DNA from: Maribacter sp. 2-571
GTDB lineage: Bacteria > Bacteroidota > Bacteroidia > Flavobacteriales > Flavobacteriaceae
DNA: 64,000 nucleotides
Direction of reading: 5' to 3'
NCBI RefSeq assembly: GCF_050589625.1
Contig: NZ_JBNGOP010000003.1
Coordinates: forward strand, 87,023-151,022
In this document: one piece after another, positions 11,999-55,956 of the stretch
Position numbering within the stretch: the first letter of the stretch is position 1
Layout: the number at the start of each line of letters is the position of its first letter
Notes under the pieces: model-generated
What the model was told of the DNA's origin: nothing
The model's input: only the letters and a program-made list of their open reading frames with translations
The model's database searches: none
Program-made: the position numbers and the translations under genes

Positions 11999-12238
11999 GG
12001 CACTTAACAAACTTCTTTTTTACCACTACATTACCTATACAAACATGAAAATAGCGTGGTAATGTCGTCTTTTTTCATTTGGCTTTTGATTCGTTAAACC
12101 TGCGTTAAATACAGGCTTTCATTATGATTTTATCAAAAATTACCCAAAAAAATAGCGTTGTATGTTTTTTATATAGGTGAATATTAAGGATTTGTGATTT
12201 GGTGACGATAGTTTTGATTTTCGTAAAGAACGCACCAA

Positions 12239-22176: not shown

Positions 22177-22345
22177 CAAAAAAATGCGCTAGTACACTTC
22201 CTTTTAAAGAAGGTGCCGGCGCATTCACCACTTGTTTACAGCGAAAATCTCTTTCAACTGTTTTACCATACCCCCGTTTCCGGAGACAGTTATCTTCTCC
22301 ATATTTTCTATCTCCTTCAACTTGAAGCGTAGTTCGTTTTCCCAA
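22177..22345 (-). pseudogene. Remnant copy (about 85-90% identical) of the 3' end plus terminator of the SPFH/band-7 gene at 31451..32557
   Basis: Direct nucleotide comparison with 31397-31590. Encodes ...KITVSGNGGMVKQLKEIFAVNK, the C-terminus of the intact gene; has a 20-bp deletion and keeps the terminator hairpin AATGCGC...GCGCATT. Confidence 0.7.
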
Positions 22346-22456
22346 TTTAGGTTCGCTATGAGGCTCTTCCCCATTCCATGGCGATGCGAAAAAATCCGCA
22401 ATTGCCAAGACCAAATCAATCAATACGAATGTAACCATAGTATGGTTTCCATGCGA

Positions 22457-31450: not shown

Positions 31451-32557
31451 CTACTTGTTTACAGCAAAAATCTCTTTTAACTGTTTGACCATACCCCCGT
31501 TCCCGGAGACGGTGATCTCACCAATCTTTTCGGCGATTTTCTCCACATATTCCATCTCTTTCAACTTGAAGAGCATTTCGTTTTCTTCCATTAGTTTAGC
31601 GGTGTTCAGCAAACTTCGGGTAGAAGCGGTCTCTTCACGTCGTGTAATGGTATTGGCCTGTGCCTGTTTTTGTGCCACAAGCACTTGGTTCATGATAGCC
31701 TTCATTTCACCCGTTAAGATGACATCTCGGATACCACAGTTCAGTACTTGTACGCCCAGGTCGGCCGCTGTTGTCTTGATTTCGGAAAATACCGCATCGG
31801 CGATGCGTTCCTTTCGCTCTAACAGCTCATCCAAGGTATAGGTGCCTATGTAGGCACGCAATACCAATTGAATGGCAACATATAACTGCTTTTCGTAGTC
31901 TTTGTTTTCCAACAAGGCCTTTTCAATAGCAACTACTTTATACTGGGTATAGCAGTTGATTCGAATAGCGGCCTTGTCCTTGGTCAACAATTCTTGCCCT
32001 GAGATCTCGAGTTGCAATTGTCGCATATCGGCGCGTGCAATCTTTACCGAGGTATCGTTTTTCCAGAAGTGGTATACCCCACTGTCCAGAACCTTCACGA
32101 AGGTATCCTCGACCAGTAACAGCGCTTTTTCGTATGCCAAAATCTCCAATACACGAATGTAAGGGCGCAGCAACGGATGGCCTAGCAGCATTTTGCCAAT
32201 GGGTTCGGTGATGTAGATTTTACTTAAATCGGCCATCACGAACTCATAATTGATCAATCCTTTCCAGAAAGCATATTTACCGGCTGCAAGCACTTTTTTC
32301 AAAGTCCCGTTTTCAGATACCAATGCCAACTCCGCATCTTTTACCTCGATAACGTGCAATAGTGCCTCCAAACCTTGGTCCTGTAGCAAAATCTCCAATG
32401 CTATCGGGGCCACAAAGGCTTTGGTGAGGTCGTATACCATGACCATGTTTCGTAGGCCTACCCAGTGTGTGCCTTGGGTAATAACGTTTTGGTAATCTCC
32501 ATTTTTGAAGACCAAACCTACTTTTCCTGCATTGATTCGTACTCGTTTCATCATCAT
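31451..32557 (-). CDS. SPFH/band-7 (slipin/flotillin-like) domain protein
   Basis: 368 aa; band-7 core followed by a long coiled-coil C-terminal region (VAQKQAQANTITRREETASTRSLLNTAKLMEENEMLFKLKEMEYVEK). Confidence 0.75.
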   Translation of the reverse strand: MMMKRVRINAGKVGLVFKNGDYQNVITQGTHWVGLRNMVMVYDLTKAFVAPIALEILLQDQGLEALLHVIEVKDAELALVSENGTLKKVLAAGKYAFWKGLINYEFVMADLSKIYITEPIGKMLLGHPLLRPYIRVLEILAYEKALLLVEDTFVKVLDSGVYHFWKNDTSVKIARADMRQLQLEISGQELLTKDKAAIRINCYTQYKVVAIEKALLENKDYEKQLYVAIQLVLRAYIGTYTLDELLERKERIADAVFSEIKTTAADLGVQVLNCGIRDVILTGEMKAIMNQVLVAQKQAQANTITRREETASTRSLLNTAKLMEENEMLFKLKEMEYVEKIAEKIGEITVSGNGGMVKQLKEIFAVNK

Positions 32558-32940
32558 TTTAAATTTGTGTCCGCCTCGCCGGTGACGGACGAACGGGTTA
32601 AACTATCATCATATATTTTAGTTGTTTCTTTTGTTTAAAAAACCGCAGCTGTGGTTCATCCATCGACTACGGAAATATTGGTTTTTGAAGTGTCGGATGA
32701 TTTGTTTTTTAGTATGCTTCCATCGGCTTTGCCAAAGGTGTTCATTGGTTTTTTCCAAGGGAGGGATATTCAAAAAGAAATGACCTTCCACATCAAATAG
32801 TCAACATTTCAAGGTAGTATTAAGACTGTTTGCCTTTCCGAAGAAAAGCCGACCGATCCATAACTACGGTTTTTTGTCATTTTAAGTCTAACAGGACTTG
32901 GAGACCAGTTTTAAAAGATGGTCGGCTTTAGAAAATGGAT

Positions 32941-33115
32941 TTTCAGTCCATATCCCACGTTATGAGCGTGGTGCTCTACCAACTGAGCTATCCCGATGCT
33001 GGCGGGAGCAGGAGTCGAACCTGCGCATCCTTCTGTTGTTCTAACCTAACTGAACTACGGTTCCAAATAGAACCGACGGGATTCGAACCCGTGACCGACA
33101 GATCTGAGACCATTT
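32941..33115 (-). pseudogene. Cluster of scrambled tRNA gene fragments (Asp-type 3' half, Asp-type 5' half, a 3' T-arm/acceptor fragment, an anticodon-CAT tRNA lacking a matching 3' acceptor)
   Basis: Minus strand reads ...GGTCACGGGTTCGAATCCCGTCGGTTCTA-TTT-GGAACCGTAGTTCAGTTAGGTTAGAAC-AACAGAAGGATGCGCAGGTTCGACTCCTGCTCCCGCCA-GCATCGGGATAGCTCAGTTGGTAGAGCACCACGCTCATAACGTGG... The acceptor halves do not pair within any unit. Confidence 0.6.
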
Positions 33116-33159: not shown

Positions 33160-34500
33160 CCTAATACTTCTCAGTAAGACTTCACACAATAGTGCTATAC
33201 AGAAACACCCAACAAGACCCGCTTGATACTTTATTCCCGCGAAGGCGGGAATCTTTTACGATTTCCCTATGCGAAGCGTAGGCCTCGCCATGGAATCTTA
33301 TCTTTCAATGAACTTTAATAAACCTGGCAACACGCCTTGTTGCTGCGAGGCACCCCCGCAAACCACGATAAGCTGCGGTTTGCACTATATTTTAAAAAAA
33401 CGTGCTGGGAATACCCACGCTTATGGACAAGCTTTCGTAGGAGTATGGCGAACGCTTTCCCTACTTTTCCACGCGCCTTCCGTTGCTTTGGAAATTGCGT
33501 ACCTGTCCGATGCCAAATACATTGTAGCCGTTCGGCAACTTAGACCCGGCCTGCATAGCGGTTTTTGGCCGCGCTTTGCAATTACGGGGGTTGGCTCCCC
33601 CACCGTTCACAGGTGTCCCCTTGCGGGGCGACCTATTGGAATGTTCACCGCATGGTATCGGCTTGCGACCGCTACCACCCCATATGTTACAATGGGTTTA
33701 GGCAACTACTAGCTGCTACAATGCCCGAAGTCTTTCGCTTTTTATGTTCTATAAAATTTTGGAAAAAAGTCTAGTAACAATTAATCATTTGACCTGGAAG
33801 AAGGGCTTCGAGAATGGCTCCGTAGATTTTGGCCTACAAAATACCAACCTTCTTCCTGTAAGCTTCCCAGCTTACGGCAGTTCCAGCCACCGAACAGTTT
33901 ACCTGTCGGGTTACTTTTATGCTGTAATCGGCACCGTTAAATCGGATGGTTTAAGCGTTACCGAGAACTACAACTTTTCCTGTTGGTGTCTCCACCGCAA
34001 GCCTACTTTTGGTCGGCTATATTTTTCTAAGGCCTCTCAGCGGTCGCCCCTGAGGCCTTGTAAAAATATGTTGGTTGCTTGCTTACCTGTACTCCCCCCG
34101 AAGGGGATAGTCTCCATTTGCGAGGCCCGCAAATAGATTTATCCTTGTTACCAAGTTTATCTAAGGACGATAAGCCGCCCCGTCATTTACAAGAAATGAC
34201 GATTTTTTTCGTAGAAGCCCATGATATGGACTCCTTTTTATTTCAATGAACTTTAGTTGAGCCTCACAACACTCCTAGTTGCTGCGAGGCACGCTCACAA
34301 ACCTCTTTTTAAAAGGCTTGTTTTTAAATACTGGGCAAAATTGAATCATAACTACGCAATTATTATGCGTAGATATTTTTTTTCATCGCATTACTTCTGC
34401 GTCGTCACGCTGAGCCTGTCGAAGCGCATTTCATTTTTGCTCGCCCCTCGACAAGCTCGGACTGACAATGCGTTGTTCATTTGACCATCTTTATTGCGGT
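33160..34500. other. ORF-free, hairpin-dense region of about 1.3 kb containing a duplicated ~90-nt motif (TTTCAATGAACTTTA...GTTGCTGCGAGGCAC) at ~33294 and ~34225, each followed by a plus-strand terminator-like hairpin
   Basis: No credible ORF. Many perfect hairpins (ggcctctcag...ctgaggcc, gtaagcttcccagcttac, ccccgaagggg). Terminator-like hairpins at 33365-33405 and 34352-34384 on the plus strand. Confidence 0.4.
34352..34384 (+). terminator. Rho-independent terminator (plus strand) inside the noncoding region
   Basis: CTACGCAATTATTATGCGTAG hairpin followed by ATATTTTTTTT. Confidence 0.5.
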
Positions 34501-34509
34501 CTTTTCTTT

Positions 34510-34594
34510 GGGTGTACTCCGGTCCCGACGCTTCGGGAGAACCCTGTTCTTCCCATTCACAGTGGGACGCTTTACCAGATAAGCTAGAGACACC
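34510..34594 (-). ncRNA. tRNA-like element, anticodon GTG (His-like), T-loop replaced by a TCCCGA-AGCG-TCGGGA hairpin; the most degenerate member
   Basis: Manual fold: acceptor GGTGTCT/GTACACC (one mismatch); anticodon arm TCCCA-CTGTGAA-TGGGA; then GTTC plus hairpin. Confidence 0.35.
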
Positions 34595-34599
34595 ATTTG

Positions 34600-34671
34600 A
34601 AGATCCGAAAGGAGTTGAACCTTTACGCCAAGGATCAAAACCTTGTATGCTAACCGTTACATCACGGATCT
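34600..34671 (-). tRNA. tRNA-Gln (anticodon TTG)
   Basis: AGATCCG-TG-ATGT-AACGGTTA-GCAT-A-CAAGG-TTTTGAT-CCTTG-GCGT-AAAGG-TTCAACT-CCTTT-CGGATCT-T; all stems pair. Confidence 0.8.
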
Positions 34672-34676
34672 ATTTG

Positions 34677-34748
34677 TACTCCATAAGGGAATCGAACCCT
34701 TGTCTTCCGATAGAAAGTCGGATGCACTAGCCACTATGCTAATGGAGC
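34677..34748 (-). tRNA. tRNA-Glu (anticodon TTC)
   Basis: GCTCCAT-TA-GCAT-AGTGGCTA-GTGC-A-TCCGA-CTTTCTA-TCGGA-AGAC-AAGGG-TTCGATT-CCCTT-ATGGAGT-A. Confidence 0.8.
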
Positions 34749-34754
34749 ATTTCT

Positions 34755-34848
34755 TCTGAGAAGCAACCCCGATGCTTCGGGGGAACTTGCGACCTCCCGC
34801 TTCCAAAGCGGGTAAACATCTCCCGAAGCTTCGGGATTATCTTCCCAG
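34755..34848 (-). ncRNA. tRNA-like element, anticodon TGG (Pro-like); both the D-arm (TCCCGAAGCTTCGGGA) and the T-loop (CCCCGAAGCATCGGGG) are replaced by palindromic hairpins
   Basis: Acceptor CTGGGAA/TTCTCAG; anticodon arm CCCGC-TTTGGAA-GCGGG; T region GCAA-G-TTC-hairpin-TTGC. Confidence 0.4.
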
Positions 34849-34852
34849 TTTG

Positions 34853-34936
34853 CAGTACCGACGGCCCCGAAACTTCGGGGGAACCCGTACCTTCCCGATA
34901 GACAGTCGGGCGCTCTAGCCTTTGAACTACGGTACT
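34853..34936 (-). ncRNA. tRNA-like element, anticodon GTC (Asp-like), canonical acceptor/D/anticodon arms, T-loop replaced by the CCCCGA-AGTT-TCGGGG hairpin
   Basis: AGTACCG-TA-GTTC-AAAGGCTA-GAGC-G-CCCGA-CTGTCTA-TCGGG-AAGGT-ACGG-G-TTC-[CCCCGAAGTTTCGGGG]-CCGT-CGGTACT-G; acceptor stems perfectly complementary. Confidence 0.5.
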
Positions 34937-34939
34937 TTG

Positions 34940-35010
34940 CGCGTCCGTAAGGATTCGAACCTCAATCCTAGGTTTTGGAGACCCAGATGCTGCCATTACA
35001 CCACAGACGC
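34940..35010 (-). tRNA. tRNA-Trp (anticodon CCA)
   Basis: GCGTCTG...TGGGT-CTCCAAA-ACCTA-GGATT-GAGG-TTCGAAT-CCTTA-CGGACGC-G; short D-arm but all stems pair. Confidence 0.75.
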
Positions 35011-35014
35011 GTTG

Positions 35015-35108
35015 TGGAAGCAGTAGCCCCGACACTTCGGGGGAACCTACATGTCATTTCTGAACCTGATTTACAGTCAGGCGAGCCAGCCAGTTGCTCA
35101 ATGCTTCC
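35015..35108 (-). ncRNA. tRNA-like element, anticodon GTA (Tyr-like, type II with long variable arm), T-loop replaced by the CCCCGA-AGTG-TCGGGG hairpin
   Basis: GGAAGCA-TT-GAGC-AACTGGCTG-GCTC-G-CCTGA-CTGTAAA-TCAGG-[variable arm]-GTAG-G-TTC-[hairpin]-CTAC-TGCTTCC-A; acceptor and D-stems perfect. Confidence 0.55.
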
Positions 35109-35117
35109 AAAATTTCA

Positions 35118-35243
35118 GAGACAAGGATGAGATTACTCACGCTATCTCTATTCTTTCTTAAGTAGTTCGTGAATGCTTTGCATTTCGAACTTATAAAAAA
35201 TGGTTTTGCAGGCCATTGCCTTAACCATTCAGCCACCTTGTCT
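35118..35243 (-). ncRNA. Degenerate tRNA-like element (possible GCA/Cys-like anticodon) with a ~75-nt hairpin-rich insertion in place of the T-arm
   Basis: Acceptor AGACAAG/CTTGTCT pairs perfectly; D-arm GGCT...; anticodon region AATGG-CCTGCAAAA-CCATT; remainder is nested hairpins. Confidence 0.25.
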
Positions 35244-35249
35244 ATTTGG

Positions 35250-35346
35250 CGGAGGGTAAAGCCCCGACGCTTCGGGGGAACCTTCACTACCTTTGGTAGA
35301 CTCGCTTAGCAGGCGAGCGCAACAAACCAGTATTTGCCTACCCTCC
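35250..35346 (-). ncRNA. tRNA-like element, anticodon GCT (Ser-like, type II long variable arm CTACC-AAA-GGTAG), T-loop replaced by the CCCCGA-AGCG-TCGGGG hairpin
   Basis: Acceptor GGAGGGT/ACCCTCC perfect; anticodon arm CTCGC-CTGCTAA-GCGAG; T region GAAG-G-TTC-hairpin-CTTT. Confidence 0.5.
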
Positions 35347-35527
35347 AGTCACTTCAGCCGTGGCCCCGACACTTCGGGGGAACCCACACGAGACTGGTTA
35401 CTCCGAAAACTTTTAACTCCATCATTTCTACTTTCATAGGTCTCGTTGAATTCGCAAGCTCATTTCAAGAGTGTGGCCACCGCCCTTTGGCTTGCCCTTC
35501 CTTTTTTCAAAAAATAATGCGCATAAA

Positions 35528-35557
35528 AAAAGCATCTCTTTATCGGAGATGCTTTGT
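35528..35557. terminator. Bidirectional rho-independent terminator hairpin
   Basis: AAAAAAAGCATCTC-TTTATCG-GAGATGCTTTGTATAT: 7-bp GC-containing stem flanked by an A-run and a T-run. Confidence 0.5.
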
Positions 35558-36170: not shown

Positions 36171-36719
36171 TTAATTTTTATGCTTTTTCTTTCTCTTTTT
36201 TGAAGAGTACTGCCTCTTTTTTACTTTGGATTTATCCCATTTCAACTTCTTCTTGACCCTGTTCTCCTCTTCTTCGATAAAGGAAAAGTAATCATCATTG
36301 AAAGCATGTTTTTTGGCCTTCTTCAGTTGTTTTATAGCAGCCTTATAATCTTGTTTGGTTTCCGCCGCATACGCGGAAAGCCAAAATAGACTTCCTTTTG
36401 CTATTCCCTTTATACTGAAAGCAAAGGCGATAAGTTTTGCTGCTCTATCGATTTCATCGGCCCAAATAAGGTATTTTGTATAAACAGGATAAACAGTTGT
36501 ATAATCACTGTTTATTGCGATTACTTTATCAAAACAGGCAAAAGCTTCGGCATACCGATTCAAGTTACCAGCATATACTTCCCCCAAAAGGCAAAGTGCC
36601 GCACAATGGTTTTCATCGTAAGACAGGGCATAATTTAATGATTCACAAACTTCGTCCCAGTCATAACCCGATGCCGCCTTGGCTTTTAAATAATAGGTGT
36701 CGGCTATTGTCAATCCCAT
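36171..36719 (-). CDS. TPR-like repeat protein with a highly basic C-terminal tail ([16 protein letters not shown])
   Basis: 182 aa, helical repeats; start overlaps the prfH stop by 10 nt (translational coupling). Confidence 0.55.
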
Positions 36720-37402
36720 TGTTGTTTTTTTAGATTGTTCTTATACTTCTGCCGTATGGCTTTAAAGCTTTTGTTCTTTTTTTGATGTTTGAAGTCGGTT
36801 CCTTTAAAGACCCGAACCGGATTTCCCCGTTGTAGCTTCAAATGATTTTCCCATTGGTCCGATATACTGTTTTTCAACTGCCGAAGGTTGGCCTCGTTCA
36901 CCTTTTCCTGTAACCGGGTTTTTGCCAGTTTTTTATTTTGGTGCTGCGACCTGTTATCCATGGCAACGACCTGAATTCCCGTCGGATGATGAGTGGCCCT
37001 AACCGCAGAGTTGACCTTATTTACATGCTGCCCACCAGGCCCTGTGCTTCTCATGGTTTGAAAAGAGATATCGTTATCCTTAATTGCTGTAGGGTTCAAC
37101 AGTTTCAGTTCAAAAACGCCGATGAACCAGTTTTTTCGTTTATGGTACTTTCGAAAATTTGAGGTGCCGATCCATTGAATGGTTCCTAACCACGTTGCTA
37201 AAAAAGTATTTAGGGTACTCCCTGTCAGCCCAATGGTGACCGATTGTACCGTGCCGTTTTGAGAACCTTTTTCCTGATGAAGTATGGCATATTGCAATCC
37301 TTCTGCCTTTACTTCCTGCAAGAATAGCTTTAGCACTTGGGAAACGACCCAGCAACATTCTGCCGGGCCTCTTCCTGCTGTAATTTGTAATATCTTTTCC
37401 AT
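36710..37402 (-). CDS. prfH: Peptide chain release factor H (PrfH; RF2-like, lacking domain 1)
   Basis: 230 aa with the GGQ motif ([25 protein letters not shown]), immediately downstream of the RtcB gene, as in the classical prfH-rtcB pair. Confidence 0.75.
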
Positions 37403-37426
37403 TGTTTTTAGTTTTATTAGGTATTA

Positions 37427-37525
37427 AGTACTGAGTACTTAGTACAAAGTATTTTGAATACCTTCTCAATACTCAATACTCAATACTCAATACTCAATAC
37501 TCAATACTCAATACTCATATCTCAC
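37427..37525. repeat. Heptanucleotide microsatellites in the rtcB-prfH intergenic region: (AGTACNN)x4 followed by (TCAATAC)x7-8
   Basis: agtactgagtacttagtacaaagtatt ... tcaatactcaatactcaatactcaatactcaatactcaatactcaatactcatatc. Confidence 0.85.
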
Positions 37526-37532
37526 TACTATT

Positions 37533-38924
37533 TCATTTATCCATTCGTACTATTTTAGGGGTAAAGGTTCCAAGTACTTCAACCAATTCTTGTTGATTCG
37601 CCATGACTTTTTCTATGTTTTTATAGGCCATCGGCGCTTCGTCTATTCCCCCGCCAATGAGGGTTACTTCATTGGCGTTCAATTGTTTTTTAATCTCGTT
37701 TTGGGTAAAGGTCTCCTTACACTTTCGTCTTGAAAAAAGACGCCCTGCACCGTGGGAGGCGGATTGTAAGCTCGCTGCATTTCCCAAACCTTTTACGATG
37801 TAACCCGGTGCCGTCATAGATCCGGGAATGATTCCCAGTTCGCCTTTTGCAGCCGGAGTCGCTCCTTTTCTGTGTACGATACACTCCTCACCGTTTACCT
37901 CTTGTTTCCAGGCAAAATTGTGATGGTTCCGTATCTTGACTATTGGTTTTGCTCCTAAAAGCTTGGCCAGCCTAGTATGAATATCATCGTGGCATGCGGT
38001 AGCGTAATCGCCCGCCAAACGCATCGCCAACCAATATTCCTGTCCGTCATGAGTATTTAAATCCAACCATGCCAAATGCTGTACGTGTTTGGGCAAGGGA
38101 CATTGCTTAGTGGCCAAATACGTGTACTGTTTTGCAATGTTCGCACCAAGGCCACGCGACCCGCTATGGGAAAGTAGACCGAGATATTCCCCCGATTTAA
38201 GTCCCCATTCGTTATCGTCGTCCGTAAGGGTTACCGTACCGAATTCAACAAAGTGGTTTCCTCCACCTGAGGTTCCCAACTGCTTGTACGCCTTGTCCTT
38301 TAGTCTTTTTACGAACGGTATATTTTTAAATTCTTCTCGCTCAAAGATTTCATGGTCATGCTTTATCCGATGCGTTTCCCGCATTCCGAACTTGGTATGT
38401 TCGGAAAGCATGTTCGCCAATTGATGCTTCTTTCCTTTAAGGTAGGAAACCGCAATAGGATAAACGGTCAAACACATACTACAGCCAATATCGACTCCTA
38501 CACCATAGGGGATTACCGCATTATGGGTCGCCAAAACACCCCCGATCGGCAGGCCATACCCGCTATGGGCATCCGGCATTAGAGCACCAGCTACGGAAAT
38601 CGGTAATTTTAGGGCATCGTACAATTGATACTTGGCTTGTTGCTCAATTTCATTTTCACCGTATATCCGAAAAGGAGCGCGTACCGTTTTGAGTTCCTGT
38701 TTTTTAACGATGACCGGGTCCAATAAACTTTCGGCTATCTTTCCCCACACGGCATCACCGCTATAGTCTTCGGGGTGCAACAACACTTTTTTGGCTTCCG
38801 TCAATACCTGCGCTTTCTTTTTTCGCTTATGGTACCTGTTGATCTGGCCCAAGGTGATGTTTATACTATTGTTCTTTGGAAAACCTAATTTGATCAGGTC
38901 CTTCCCGCTTAATTTTTTTCCCAT
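37533..38924 (-). CDS. rtcB: RtcB-family RNA 3'-phosphate ligase (release-factor-H-coupled RtcB2 type)
   Basis: 463 aa; conserved RtcB motifs MPDAHSGYG, GGGNHF, NHHNF and SHGAGR (metal and GTP-binding His/Cys residues). Confidence 0.8.
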   Translation of the reverse strand: MGKKLSGKDLIKLGFPKNNSINITLGQINRYHKRKKKAQVLTEAKKVLLHPEDYSGDAVWGKIAESLLDPVIVKKQELKTVRAPFRIYGENEIEQQAKYQLYDALKLPISVAGALMPDAHSGYGLPIGGVLATHNAVIPYGVGVDIGCSMCLTVYPIAVSYLKGKKHQLANMLSEHTKFGMRETHRIKHDHEIFEREEFKNIPFVKRLKDKAYKQLGTSGGGNHFVEFGTVTLTDDDNEWGLKSGEYLGLLSHSGSRGLGANIAKQYTYLATKQCPLPKHVQHLAWLDLNTHDGQEYWLAMRLAGDYATACHDDIHTRLAKLLGAKPIVKIRNHHNFAWKQEVNGEECIVHRKGATPAAKGELGIIPGSMTAPGYIVKGLGNAASLQSASHGAGRLFSRRKCKETFTQNEIKKQLNANEVTLIGGGIDEAPMAYKNIEKVMANQQELVEVLGTFTPKIVRMDK

Positions 38925-39694
38925 GATATTTCGTCTTTTAGTAATTGGTGAATGGAATATTTTCTAAGGTTTTGGACATCTTTTTTAATTTTTCTGTTCC
39001 GTTTTTTCACTTCTTCTACCTTCCACCAATCGTTCCATTTGTCTAGTTTTTCATTCGTTTCGTAATAGCCATGCTTTTTCATTTGCTGTCCCAATAGCGC
39101 ACTTTCACTTTCCAGTTTTGGGTCAATGCGTTTGCTATGGGTGATAAAGGCTCTGGTAAATCGGATCCGATATGCCCCTCTCGGGATTTTTACATAGTAC
39201 CGGAGTCTCAATTTTTTACTTTCCACCATATAGTGGAAAGGCATGCACAGTAATTTTGCTTTATCGCTCAATCGATTGTACTGTTTTTTGCTAATGGTCG
39301 GAATTTCCTTGTTGATCAAATATTTTGAAGTTTGATGACGCCACTTTTTTTCCGCTTCTTCTTTGGTGCGTCCCCAAAATAGTTTTTCCACCTTATCGTA
39401 CACCTCTCTTATAGCGGCACCATTTTTATAGTGCTCCACGCCATGGGTGATGATAATTTCTTTAAACCAACCATGTCGAATAGGCTTCTTTAACTCGATA
39501 AACCCCAGTGCATTTTTTTCTGCCCATAGTTGACCTAGTCTCTTTCGAATACGACGAATTTCTTTCGCTCTTTTACATTTGATATGTGGGGGTTTCACGA
39601 CACATCCGTTTTTAGGGTTGCATTTTTTTAAAATCAGGTTGCTGCATCGTTCGATGCCAAAATCGTTTGCGCAATGGCATTGATTTTGTTTCAA
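38909..39694 (-). CDS. Hypothetical Cys-rich, highly basic protein translationally coupled to rtcB
   Basis: 261 aa; N-terminal CHC...C...C..C...C (CHCANDFGIERCSNLILKKCNPKNGCVVKPPHIKC) zinc-ribbon-like cluster; Lys/Arg/Trp-rich; 16-nt overlap with the rtcB start. Confidence 0.5.
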   Translation of the reverse strand: MKQNQCHCANDFGIERCSNLILKKCNPKNGCVVKPPHIKCKRAKEIRRIRKRLGQLWAEKNALGFIELKKPIRHGWFKEIIITHGVEHYKNGAAIREVYDKVEKLFWGRTKEEAEKKWRHQTSKYLINKEIPTISKKQYNRLSDKAKLLCMPFHYMVESKKLRLRYYVKIPRGAYRIRFTRAFITHSKRIDPKLESESALLGQQMKKHGYYETNEKLDKWNDWWKVEEVKKRNRKIKKDVQNLRKYSIHQLLKDEISWEKN

Positions 39695-52761: not shown

Positions 52762-54204
<1,443 letters not shown>

Positions 54205-54284
54205 CTACAGGAAGTCGGCGAACTGGCTTCTTTATGATTCCGGTACAAACTTCACATCTTTCTGCGCAATCATTTTGCGTAGTT

Positions 54285-54935
54285 ATGAAATACACTATCT
54301 TTAAGTCAAAGGATCAAATGAATTTGGAGCAAAGGTTTAGGTCATTACATACGATTTGGGTAACCGATGAAACTCGTGTAGATAACCTATGGATCGAGTT
54401 GACCAACAAGTATAACGAAACACATAGGCACTATCACAATCTGGAGCATATAAGGGCGTTGTTCGCTTATTATGATGACTATAACACCGAGTTAAAGTAT
54501 CCAAATGAGGTGGCTTGCGCCCTGTTTTATCATGATATTATCTATGATATATGGAGTAAAAAGAACGAGTTGAAGAGTGCGGAACTTGTGAGAGCCCATT
54601 TGGAATCATATCGGTTGAACGATAGCTGTATCGATCGTATTTGTAATCTTATTATGGTCACCAAAGATCATAAGCCCAAGGATAATGAAGATGAAAAATG
54701 GATGATCGACTTTGATATTGGTATTTTGGGTCGGTCTTGGGACCGATATCATGTATACACCCAACAAATACGAAAAGAGTATAGTGCCGTTCCCGGTTTT
54801 ATATATCGCAAGGGTAGGAAAAAGGTGCTTGATCACTTTTTGGAAAAGGATTTTATCTATAGCACCAAATTTTTCCGTGATCGATTTGAAATCAAAGCGC
54901 GGAGCAATATTAAAAAAGAACTAGAAACGCTTTAA
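54285..54935 (+). CDS. HD-superfamily metal-dependent phosphohydrolase (COG4339-like)
   Basis: H..H...HD-type motifs (HRHYHNLEHI...ALFYHDIIYD); divergent from the second RtcB gene. Confidence 0.6.
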   Translation: MKYTIFKSKDQMNLEQRFRSLHTIWVTDETRVDNLWIELTNKYNETHRHYHNLEHIRALFAYYDDYNTELKYPNEVACALFYHDIIYDIWSKKNELKSAELVRAHLESYRLNDSCIDRICNLIMVTKDHKPKDNEDEKWMIDFDIGILGRSWDRYHVYTQQIRKEYSAVPGFIYRKGRKKVLDHFLEKDFIYSTKFFRDRFEIKARSNIKKELETL

Positions 54936-54936
54936 A

Positions 54937-55956
54937 ATGGCCCTTAACAAAAATGCCCTTATCCGATACAAGACCATTGACAAGTGCCTACAGAACCGGT
55001 ATCGCCAATGGACGCTTGACGATTTGATCGAAGCCTGTTCAGATGCCCTATATGAGTATGAGGACAGGGATATCAATGTAAGCAAGCGTACCGTACAATT
55101 GGACATTCAACTGATGCGCAGCGACAAATTGGGGTATAATGCGCCTATAGAAGTCTATCGGAAAAAGTACTACCGTTATGCGGATGATGGTTTTTCCATC
55201 ACCAATATTCCCATAACGGAAAACGATATGGACGTACTTTCCGAAACGGTGGAAATGTTAAAACAGTTCAAGGACTTTTCGCTGTTTTCCGAACTGGGCG
55301 GTATCATTCAACGCTTGGAAGATACCGTGTATACCGAAAAGACCCACCAGTCGGCCATCATCCACCTGGACAAAAATGAAAACCTAAAAGGGCTACATTG
55401 GTTGGACGAGCTTTATCGCGCGATTCAAAAAAAGGTGGTATTGGATATCACCTACCAATCCTTTAAGGCGAAAAAGCCCAGTATTATTAAGTTCCATCCT
55501 TACTTGTTAAAAGAGTTCAATAACCGCTGGTTTTTGATCGGGGCCGATGATAAGGGCAAGGTTATCTTGAATTTTGCGTTGGATCGAATTCTGGCATTGG
55601 ACCTGGATTTTCAAACCGACTACGCTGTTGGTAATTTTGATGCCGATACCTTTTATATGGATGTGGTGGGTGTTACGGTAAACCGGGAAAGGCCTTCCGT
55701 GGTAAAGGTATGGGTCGATAAGGGCAACGCTCCATATGTGGTAACAAAACCCTTACACCACTCCCAGCGCGTTGTTAAGGAAAACGAGGACGGCAGCATT
55801 GAAGTTACGCTATTGGTAAAGCTCAACTACGAACTTGAACGGTTATTGTTAGGTTTTGGAGAGGCCTTGGAAGTATTGAAGCCCGAGCGGTTGCGGAAAC
55901 GAATTCGGATAAAACTGAATCGGGCGGCCACCCGTTATGGGGAAGATTTGCCTTAA
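54937..55956 (+). CDS. HTH plus WYL-domain transcriptional regulator
   Basis: N-terminal wHTH (DeoR-like); WYL-type motif region FHPYLLKEFNNRWFLIGADDKGKVILNFALDRILAL; C-terminal WCX-like region. Confidence 0.65.
   Translation: MALNKNALIRYKTIDKCLQNRYRQWTLDDLIEACSDALYEYEDRDINVSKRTVQLDIQLMRSDKLGYNAPIEVYRKKYYRYADDGFSITNIPITENDMDVLSETVEMLKQFKDFSLFSELGGIIQRLEDTVYTEKTHQSAIIHLDKNENLKGLHWLDELYRAIQKKVVLDITYQSFKAKKPSIIKFHPYLLKEFNNRWFLIGADDKGKVILNFALDRILALDLDFQTDYAVGNFDADTFYMDVVGVTVNRERPSVVKVWVDKGNAPYVVTKPLHHSQRVVKENEDGSIEVTLLVKLNYELERLLLGFGEALEVLKPERLRKRIRIKLNRAATRYGEDLP

Follow-up and report, generated by a model that had tools for sequence, protein, structure and literature searches.

Organization of the tRNA array

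The stretch analyzed here, referred to as the window, is the whole 64-kb segment of Maribacter sp. 2-571. Its minus strand carries an array of tRNA genes and tRNA-like units, several of which have a short palindromic hairpin in place of part of the T-loop. The array comprises 11 units in about 1 kb, from 35501 to ~34481 (Table 1), and includes three canonical tRNAs (Trp, Glu, and Gln) and six units with a hairpin in the T-loop. It is longer than the 34510–35346 assigned to it in a first-pass annotation made from the sequence alone, which had left out the tRNA-Ser-TGA unit and the tRNA-Phe remnant. In the unmodified sequence of the flagged region, ARAGORN and Rfam, the latter at its gathering score, call just Trp-CCA, Glu-TTC, and Gln-TTG, the same three tRNAs that the annotation had considered canonical. 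Inter-tRNA spacers are 3–7 nt long. They begin with CAA, as had been noted for four of five well-defined ones: CAA, and not CCA, comes after the discriminator base of every unit (spacers of 34500–35110); CCA is encoded in Ser-GCT only. Whole-unit deletions between strains are edged by CAA-type spacer on both sides.

Some units are disrupted in further ways. The Ser-TGA unit carries a 48-nt insertion after the anticodon (35462–35415; placed by BLAST) and its 3′ acceptor strand has been replaced. The first 24 nt of this insertion match positions 12073–12096 of a Flavivirga locus (L125). The adjacent degenerate unit had been tentatively described as Cys-like and grouped with the hairpin units. 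Alignment with the Allomuricauda locus (L121) establishes its identity as Cys-GCA; in place of a hairpin, it has a 51-nt insertion within the T-loop (35185–35135), which alignment and BLAST also located in Maribacter sp. 515-3Z (L061). The T-loop is thus the target of more than one kind of insertion. Together with these insertions, four deleted units and a truncated tRNA-Phe attest to the decay of the array.

Table 1. Units of the tRNA array and neighboring features, with window coordinates. Hairpin positions are given in the direction of the minus strand.
Feature	Position	Strand	Hairpin	Basis and remarks
tRNA-Ser-TGA unit, disrupted	35348–35501	−	Seventh copy, in T-loop (35379–35364)	Aligned to canonical orthologues in L061 (7629–7541) and L121 (19527–19615)
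tRNA-Ser-GCT body, CCA encoded	35247–35346	−	CCCCGAAGCGTCGGGG (35277–35262) in place of T-loop AATTC	ARAGORN after hairpin swap; T-loop canonical in L061 and L121
tRNA-Cys-GCA unit	35119–35242	−	None	Aligned with canonical Cys gene of L121
tRNA-Tyr-GTA body	35014–35108	−	CCCCGAAGTGTCGGGG (35042–35027) in place of T-loop GAGTC	ARAGORN after swap, alignment, minimum free energy (MFE) fold
tRNA-Trp-CCA, canonical	34939–35010	−		ARAGORN and Rfam (54.8 bits); unit missing from L061
tRNA-Asp-GTC body	34852–34936	−	CCCCGAAGTTTCGGGG (34880–34865) in place of T-loop GAGTC	ARAGORN after swap; aligned with L061 7200–7127
Pro-TGG-like unit	34755–34848	−	D-arm TCCCGAAGCTTCGGGA (34836–34821); T-loop CCCCGAAGCATCGGGG (34782–34767)	Sequence, pattern search, alignment
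tRNA-Glu-TTC, canonical	34676–34748	−		ARAGORN and Rfam (66.5 bits)
tRNA-Gln-TTG, canonical	34599–34671	−		ARAGORN and Rfam (57.5 bits)
tRNA-His-GTG body	34510–34594	−	Variant TCCCGAAGCGTCGGGA (34538–34523) in place of T-loop GAATC	ARAGORN after swap (34593–34510), alignment; canonical in L121
tRNA-Phe 5′ remnant	~34481–34503	−		Alignment; full unit with hairpin in L061
Operon upstream of array	36171–39694	−		Pfam, NCBIfam; same order in L120–L125
261-aa protein	38909–39694	−		No Pfam or NCBIfam match; overlaps rtcB start
RtcB	38924–37533	−		Pfam RtcB, E = 1e-82
PrfH	37402–36710	−		NCBIfam TIGR03072 release_prfH, 245.6 bits (cutoff 166.65)
TPR protein	36719–36171	−		Pfam
Intrinsic-terminator-like hairpin with T-run	35529–35555	−		Closes the RtcB-PrfH-TPR operon; array begins right after
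GOLLD-like large RNA	33402–33856	−		Rfam RF02032; directly downstream of array
Two YrlA-like (Y-RNA-like) tRNA-mimic modules	32973–33100	−		Rfam, 37.7 and 32.0 bits, below gathering score
Degenerate tRNA-like element, CAT anticodon	32927–32997	−		Rfam tRNA, 36.2 bits

Structure and precision of the hairpin

The module is a 16-nt hairpin, YCCCGA-AGNN-TCGGGR, consisting of a 6-bp stem and a tetraloop, and occurs in seven copies in the window. A search with the core CCCGAAGNNTCGGG allowing up to one mismatch yielded 12 matches over both strands, corresponding to seven sites, all in 34524–35378; the rest of the 64 kb contained no match. In shuffled sequences, the same pattern matched 0.31 times on average and twice at most. 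The first-pass count of seven copies was thus borne out.

To evaluate the bodies of the units, each GTTC plus hairpin was replaced in silico with the canonical T-loop GTTCGAATC and the result was submitted to ARAGORN. After the swap, Ser-GCT, Tyr-GTA, Asp-GTC, and His-GTG were called as tRNAs with a 7-bp acceptor stem, a D-arm, and a 5-bp anticodon stem closing a 7-nt loop. These calls reproduce the folds drawn manually for the same four units, at the same positions. The Pro-like, Cys-like, and Ser-TGA units were not called even after the swap. In the Pro-like unit, the predicted hairpin in the D-arm is indeed present alongside the T-arm copy, and the two hairpins pair with each other in the MFE fold calculated with ViennaRNA. 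For the Tyr-like unit, the same program predicts a cloverleaf in which the T-stem has 4 bp, GUUC forms a bulge, and the tetraloop caps a 6-bp hairpin.

Alignment revealed that all six T-loop events in the window swap out exactly tRNA positions 57–61 (GANTC; AATTC in Ser-GCT). The substitution therefore involves five nucleotides only and not, as first described, the whole 7-nt loop. Moreover, AATTC was also turned into the ...GA...TC... form, which makes the event a true replacement by a fixed module and not an expansion of the original loop. With positions 57–61 replaced by 16 nt, the units no longer satisfy the T-arm of the Rfam tRNA model RF00005: unswapped, they are not called at its gathering score of 29 bits, the best sub-threshold scores being 25.8 bits for the His-like unit and 21.5 bits for the Asp-like one. 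A canonical T-arm has a 5-bp T-stem and a 7-nt T-loop with T54, Psi55, C56, R57, and A58, and the T54–A58 and G53–C61 interactions shape the elbow of the tRNA. From this general structural knowledge, the hairpin probably abolishes both interactions and the normal elbow, and thus inactivates the tRNA copy that carries it.

Orthologous arrays in related genomes

PrfH homologues were retrieved with their genomic contexts. The loci compared with the window included those of Allomuricauda (L121), Kordia (L122), Flavivirga (L125), Maribacter sp. 515-3Z (L061), and the Maribacter-group isolate 2-697 (L124, on the same contig as L040). A tRNA array lies downstream of RtcB-PrfH in each of L121, L122, L124, and L125. 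In the last three it is located between PrfH-TPR and an SPFH gene, as in the window; in Allomuricauda it lies ~9 kb downstream of RtcB-PrfH, past intervening genes. The orthologous arrays hold 7–15 tRNAs each. The Allomuricauda array reads Ser-TGA, Ser-GCT, Cys, Tyr, Trp, Asp, (Pro-like), Glu, Lys, Leu, Leu, Arg, Gln, His, which is the order of the window, and all 13 of its ARAGORN-called tRNAs are canonical. Its orthologue of the Pro-like unit has a small D-arm and a canonical T-loop. Similarly, the arrays beside RtcB-PrfH in Kordia and Flavivirga are canonical.

The three-way alignment of the window, L061, and L121 gave 88.9–90.8% identity at aligned positions, and the hairpin varied from gene to gene. 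The tRNA-Asp of the window differs from its canonical counterpart in L061 solely in having CCCCGAAGTTTCGGGG for GAGTC. Hairpins were found in the window only for Ser-TGA, Ser-GCT, and Asp; in both the window and L061, with differing tetraloops, for Tyr, Pro-like, and His (the Tyr orthologue of L121 being canonical); in L061 only for Phe and a Lys 3′ fragment; and in L124 only for Glu and Lys. The hairpin-bearing Tyr and His units of L061 have acquired C·A mismatches in their stems. Whole units have also been gained or lost: L061 lacks Trp, and the window lacks Lys, Leu, Leu, and Arg.

On this unit-by-unit comparison, the hairpin units represent derived alleles, recent and variable among strains, of genes whose form in relatives is canonical, and an old, maintained class of tRNA is ruled out. 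The first-pass annotation had favored such a class, with a new T-arm and roles as mimics, decoys, or repair substrates. That proposal is not supported, given the canonical genes of Allomuricauda, Kordia, and Flavivirga, the polymorphism between strains, and the gross disruption of several units. The option that it had listed last, targets of a T-loop-specific insertion element, is the one supported by the comparative data. The annotation had also pointed to a resemblance between some of the anticodons and those cleaved by colicin E5-type nucleases; a conserved accessory array of about 13–15 different tRNAs explains their presence more simply. Dense units of mixed identity, strain-variable content, and an adjoining GOLLD-like RNA all mark the locus as an accessory tRNA array.

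Distribution of the hairpin

Genomes were scanned, one per species, with the pattern GTTCCCCCGAAGNNTCGGGG, which requires GTTC and an exact stem. It was present in more than 118 stretches of species-representative genomes, almost all of them from Bacteroidota. Among the matches listed, the taxa are mainly Flavobacteriaceae, with Saprospiraceae, Chitinophagaceae, Roseivirga, and Draconibacterium also represented. The module is low-copy: the best-sampled genome has ~8 exact-pattern sites over six contigs. The basal stem pair is C-G in 168 of 180 copies among the matches listed, with compensatory T-A in 11 and T-G in one; the tetraloop is AGNN with a third base that is usually a pyrimidine, although these stem and loop figures are biased by the search pattern. 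On the sense strand, stem variants comprise six G·U and two C·A, too few to separate constraint at the RNA level from constraint at the DNA level.

A full tRNA body surrounds the hairpin in 14 of the 169 copies evaluated among the matches listed. Most copies are 3′ fragments composed of variable loop, T-stem, GTTC, hairpin, T-stem, and the 3′ strand of the acceptor stem, often with a trailer and terminator after them. These fragments are duplicates of the 3′-terminal part of a canonical tRNA gene situated 16–564 nt upstream. The duplicated segments extend from the variable loop as far as the terminator's end, and fragment and tRNA match over 7–17 nt on the left of the hairpin and up to 99 nt on its right. 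The replaced pentamer corresponded to positions 57–61 in the 36 measured fragment/tRNA pairs too. Some fragments form tandem arrays, an example being the six copies with a 94-nt period at L073. Outside arrays, near-full-length hairpin copies (Val, Cys, and Pro) have degenerate acceptor ends and invariably adjoin a canonical gene for the same tRNA. That the hairpin copy is never the sole gene at loci outside the accessory arrays argues that it cannot stand in for the normal tRNA.

T-loop sites are far commoner than D-loop sites, which were found in the Pro-like unit of the window, Ser-GCT of L061, L248, and L084. Copies also occur within other hairpins: at L074, the module is nested in the loop of another copy, and at L246, a terminator loop carries an inverted copy. 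A check proposed at the outset was whether the units are tRNA pseudogenes disrupted by a dispersed palindrome. This holds only in part: the module is indeed dispersed in Bacteroidota and is found in a miniature inverted-repeat transposable element (MITE), in a terminator loop, and in itself; on the other side, it is low-copy and overwhelmingly located in tRNA gene loops. As judged from these genomes, it is a Bacteroidota-wide, low-copy palindromic mini-element tied to tRNA gene loops.

Several other observations concern the distribution. A ~200-nt MITE with the GTTC-hairpin inside is present in a Saprospiraceae metagenome-assembled genome and others (L006, L021, L034, L038, L039, L043, L090, and L116). 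It has terminal inverted repeats of roughly 37 bp (TAAGTACGTAACCCTATTTATCTGGACATTTTGACAG...), and some copies bear an extra polymorphic insertion of ~25 nt, a TCCCGA...TCGGGA hairpin. On NODE_25 of isolate 2-697 (L023), two hairpin-bearing GC-rich units at 1161 and 1490, 329 nt apart, lie downstream of tRNA-Asp; they read ...GGGCGTCGGCGTTC-hairpin-CCGTCCGGACCGC and are unlike tRNA-Asp fragments. A phage origin of the hairpin was considered and rejected: 2.9 million viral contigs contained one match, outside any tRNA. A metagenome scan based on the T-stem flanks of tRNA-Phe (CCTGGTTC N14-20 CTGGAGG) gave one real match among the 120 listed, the rest being chance. Finally, 36.5% of observed sites and 34% of mismatched-flank controls had an enclosing stem of 4 bp or more, a poorly discriminating test; it is individual cases that support the idea of insertion into the loops of existing stems.

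Association with a minimal GIY-YIG nuclease

At one locus (L052), tandem 370-nt units come after a canonical tRNA-Phe; each is made up of a terminator, a 93-aa open reading frame (ORF), and a hairpin-bearing tRNA-Phe fragment. The ORF encodes a GIY-YIG domain protein (Pfam PF01541, E = 8e-16). Proteins of this family are 93–95 aa long and consist of a single domain with no separate DNA-binding domain; their nearest solved relatives, at weak E-values, are single-domain UPF0213 proteins. Among the matches listed, a GIY-YIG gene lies directly upstream of the fragment in 35 of 118 motif-selected loci. Family members picked without reference to the motif gave the same picture: all four adjoin a canonical tRNA and hairpin-marked partial tRNA copies, and the hairpin sequence variants differ between these genomes. 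The two Flavobacterium loci (L246 and L247) have the T-loop hairpin variant TCCCGAAGCCTCGGGA, and the loop that holds the inverted copy at L246 is that of a duplicated terminator. In Winogradskyella (L248), three tRNA-Phe 5′ fragments lie upstream, with the hairpin in the D-loop. In Fluviicola (L249), there are two tandem GIY-YIG genes, and the variant TTCCGACGCTTCGGAA occurs eight times in 5 kb, in T-loops and other contexts. Tandem cassette arrays are present at L052, L071, and L249, and isolate 2-697 has a GIY-YIG cassette on another contig (L036) than its tRNA array. From these gene neighborhoods, there is a strong association of the module both with partial duplication of tRNAs and with a minimal GIY-YIG nuclease; at housekeeping loci, it marks partial copies on the flanks of an intact gene, typically as part of tandem cassettes that include the nuclease.

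Origin of the hairpin units

Taken together, these results lead us to favor, with a probability of roughly 60%, a small loop-targeting palindromic insertion, possibly GIY-YIG-linked, that riddles a redundant accessory tRNA array and leaves hairpin copies that are probably inactive. A nuclease acting in trans, for which the GIY-YIG protein is the best candidate, would cut or nick the loop DNA of tRNA genes. Repair would then install the 16-nt hairpin in place of positions 57–61, at the DNA level. Insertions would pile up in the array, whose tRNAs are presumed spare copies: the hairpin would be tolerated there because these tRNAs are redundant, so that the array became an accumulation site. There is a precedent for part of this scheme in SegB, a GIY-YIG endonuclease that cleaves DNA inside clusters of tRNA genes and, by way of recombination, brings about the tandem amplification of tRNA and nuclease units (PMC13096335).

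Several points weigh against this interpretation. No GIY-YIG gene of the 93–95 aa family is present in the window, L061, L040, or L120–L125, and neither integrase nor transposase was found within 2.5 kb of the four cassettes selected independently of the motif (L246–L249). Hairpin sites have no target-site duplication and, beyond GGTTC, no flanking homology that would explain how a fixed module enters tRNA genes with different T-stems. Both the enzyme and the mechanism of insertion are putative. The apparent T-loop preference and sequence conservation are partly a matter of ascertainment because the scan demanded GTTC and an exact stem. The Ser-GCT, Tyr, Asp, and His hairpin units keep otherwise intact tRNA bodies, their loss of function being deduced from structure. 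Finally, selection, and not tolerance, could be the reason why hairpins are so dense in arrays beside RNA-repair genes.

This last point bears on an adaptive remodeling of the elbow, which we consider unlikely overall. In this scenario, hairpin arms would be selected for making array tRNAs useful to the RtcB-PrfH island, and the units would be either non-translating decoys or sentinels that display authentic anticodon loops to anticodon nucleases and feed RtcB or its WYL regulator, or tRNAs resistant to a toxin or processing enzyme directed at the elbow or T-loop. The setting is suggestive: the array directly follows RtcB-PrfH-TPR in an island whose other contents include a GOLLD-like RNA, Y-RNA-like tRNA mimics, and a second RtcB paired with a WYL regulator, and hairpin density is high in three Maribacter-group arrays. 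The replacement is precise, preserving the T-stem and GTTC, it affects the two loops that form the elbow, and four units retain perfect acceptor, D, and anticodon arms; the compensatory C-G to U-A stem changes (11 of 180 copies) and the asymmetric AGNN loop would also fit. What speaks against selection is that the orthologous arrays of three other genera are fully canonical and that close strains differ gene by gene in their hairpins. Moreover, the module is present at sites that preclude a tRNA-like function, namely in truncated tRNA fragments, a MITE, a terminator loop, and the loop of another copy; at housekeeping loci, the hairpin copy is never the only one; and the stems of L061 have mismatches while other array units are plainly broken. 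More speculative, and improbable in our estimation, is a combination of the two ideas: a previously unknown site-specific DNA-editing system of Bacteroidota in which the minimal GIY-YIG nuclease, acting in trans, would install the module in elbow loops and RtcB-PrfH islands would exploit it. Spare tRNA genes would thereby turn, in a way that is reversible within a population, into decoys or sentinels with a blocked elbow, which offer authentic anticodon loops to anticodon nucleases and stay outside translation.

The remaining explanations concern how the hairpin arose. It is doubtful that the units are scars of site-specific recombination, with the hairpin T-arm as an att-like site (cf. integron attC and phage attP) of small circular cassettes that enter the 3′ part of a tRNA through a recombinase encoded elsewhere, and full-length hairpin tRNAs arising when a cassette is excised by an alternative crossover. 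The order of canonical tRNA, trailer/terminator, GIY-YIG cargo, and hairpin-marked 3′ copy with its trailer/terminator is the product expected from integration of a circle; the tandem cassette arrays also agree with it, as does the foreign DNA that abuts the hairpin in the Lys unit of L061 and the Ser-TGA unit of the window. The GIY-YIG loci agree with this scenario, but the array does not: on either side of the hairpin, every array tRNA has retained its own T-stem, so a matching cassette would be required for each target. No integrase was found in the islands or near the four cassettes, many units lack cargo altogether and repeat every 79–94 nt only, and the D-loop, terminator-loop, and nested copies misfit an att-site. 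Very improbable are T-loop mini-introns, cut out by an endonuclease and resealed by RtcB to give normal tRNAs. The rtcB gene is ~2 kb upstream of the array, RtcB serves as the tRNA-splicing ligase in archaea and animals, and introns may be located in the T-loops of archaeal tRNAs. Nevertheless, positions 57–61 are absent from the gene, so no excision would restore a T-loop with A58 and the G53–C61 pair. There is also no bulge-helix-bulge motif, 16 nt is too short for a ribozyme, and the same hairpin occurs in truncated fragments and at non-tRNA sites. Chance similarity or an assembly artefact is a negligible prospect, with seven copies against 0.31 expected matches and the same structures in independent assemblies of other strains and genera.

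Comparison with known systems

The module resembles in several respects the repetitive extragenic palindromic (REP) elements and their associated tyrosine transposases (RAYTs; PMC3733652). Both involve short GC-rich stem-loops directly behind a constant tetranucleotide, which is GTTC in the module and GTAG or CGTC in REPs. These stem-loops are strain-variable, are transcribable as RNA hairpins, may lie inside genes, and flank a small dedicated nuclease gene. REP elements with their transposase are high-copy and mobilized by an HUH/Y1 enzyme, whereas the present module is low-copy, with seven copies in one array in 64 kb, and has a GIY-YIG nuclease as its partner, no transposase having been found in the cassette flanks. 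Other differences are that 5 nt are replaced rather than the element being simply inserted, that the targets are tRNA gene loops, and that the GTTC tag is the T-loop's own sequence, missing from the D-loop and terminator-loop copies. The REP survey covers GTAG and CGTC tags only and reports no GTTC tags or tRNA targets (PMC3733652).

The SegB systems of phages T4 and T6 (PMC2330249, PMC13096335) likewise have a GIY-YIG gene beside tRNA genes and tandem tRNA and nuclease units. SegB, however, is a phage-borne, site-specific homing endonuclease with no reported T-loop-replacing conserved hairpin, whereas the Bacteroidota protein is chromosomal, UPF0213-like, and 93–95 aa long. The array itself recalls horizontally transferred tRNA islands with GOLLD RNA (PMC6582537, PMC8421152, PMC12286853) in its dense non-housekeeping tRNAs, adjacent GOLLD, pseudo-tRNAs, and unit-wise variation between strains. 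It differs in its location on the chromosome of Flavobacteriaceae, where it is syntenic with an RtcB-PrfH operon for ribosome and RNA repair, and in that its pseudo-tRNAs stem from one recurrent, precise hairpin substitution.

Three further comparisons are more distant. The GC clusters of yeast mitochondria and the palindromic elements of Rickettsia are mobile GC-rich palindromes of 30–150 bp that are not specific for tRNA loops; they have in common with the module that tiny polymorphic palindromic insertions are tolerated in structured RNA or protein genes. YrlA, the bacterial Y RNA of Rsr/RtcB operons, is also a tRNA-like RNA encoded beside RtcB. Unlike YrlA, the hairpin units keep their anticodon arms, have canonical orthologues, and lack a Ro-binding stem; the YrlA model did not match any of them at E ≤ 10. 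Although palindromic, the module also differs from a MITE in having no target-site duplication and in deleting 5 nt, and the ~200-nt Saprospiraceae MITE merely contains it.

For a palindromic element with a partner nuclease, the size, precision, and target of this one are unusual. The literature that we covered, which excludes most subscription journals, contains no account of a T-loop-substituting hairpin, nor of cassettes in Flavobacteriia that combine GIY-YIG genes and tRNA fragments. Should the comparative picture be borne out, the module would be among the smallest site-specific insertion elements known to us, phylum-wide in its distribution and found in many different tRNA genes. It raises the mechanistic question of how a fixed hairpin enters loops that share only GGTTC, and would account for tRNA pseudogenes and tRNA-fragment repeats of Bacteroidota that standard tRNA finders miss or miscall. 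The same results remove the tempting claim of a new tRNA architecture.

Genomic setting

The island comprises, in order, the 261-aa protein, RtcB, PrfH, TPR protein, terminator, and tRNA array, followed in Maribacter by a GOLLD-like RNA, Y-RNA-like modules, and an SPFH gene, as annotated from sequence models. Adjacent rtcB and prfH, with PrfH above the cutoff of its equivalog hidden Markov model, identify a ribosome rescue/repair operon of the RtcB2-PrfH type; at 230 aa, the PrfH of the window, which is 100% identical to the protein that NCBI names for Maribacter sp. 2-571, is within the size range of the Flavobacteriia PrfH-CT subfamily (PMC12829566). An ORF of 229–261 aa overlapping the rtcB start was also found in L123 (7877–8566) and L125 (7936–8625), and a conserved protein of 175–183 aa, TPR-like in some genomes, follows prfH in all of L120–L125. 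Both look like uncharacterized members of the RtcB-PrfH operon in Flavobacteriaceae. On the comparative picture, RtcB-PrfH repair islands of this family carry a conserved spare-tRNA array, a possible back-up against tRNA-cleaving toxins.

The GOLLD-like RNA matched its model over the full length with 138 bits (E = 1.2e-37), below the gathering score of 150. Its orthologue in L124 scored 124 bits, and none was detected in Kordia (L122) or Flavivirga (L125). GOLLD beside tRNA arrays is already known from phages and Mycobacterium arrays (PMC6582537, PMC12286853). Two plus-strand ORFs without Pfam match (33269–33712 and 33744–34136) overlap the RNA and are probably spurious. The YrlA-like modules and the CAT element are located between the GOLLD-like RNA and the SPFH gene; the modules are 1.4 kb from the array. 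Similarity to this region (32927–33100) was detected by BLAST in L061, L122, and L124, and in L122, L124, and L125 the Band_7 gene is likewise immediately preceded by tRNA-like matches. No Ro/TROVE protein turned up among the proteins scanned. The Pedo-repair RNA (RF01715), an RtcB-linked motif of Pedobacter, was considered as well; the region contained no match even at E ≤ 10.

Isolate 2-697 (L040/L124) and the window have 93.5% DNA identity from the SPFH side to window position 34251, and their SPFH proteins are 98.6% identical. The PrfH of the isolate is merely 75% identical to that of the window, and the array differs too. This pattern points to recombination, with a breakpoint at the array, and to an exchanged island.

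Elsewhere in the window, a second RtcB paralogue (28% identical to the first) and a divergently transcribed WYL-WCX regulator are encoded at 52762–55956. The second-RtcB module is also found in L120–L122 and L125, where it includes RlaP and PolyA_pol (CCA-adding-like) genes. Finally, a 49-aa stretch encoded on the minus strand at 22231–22356 is 69% identical to the C-terminus of the SPFH protein (31451–32557), ~9 kb away, and is likely a gene fragment.

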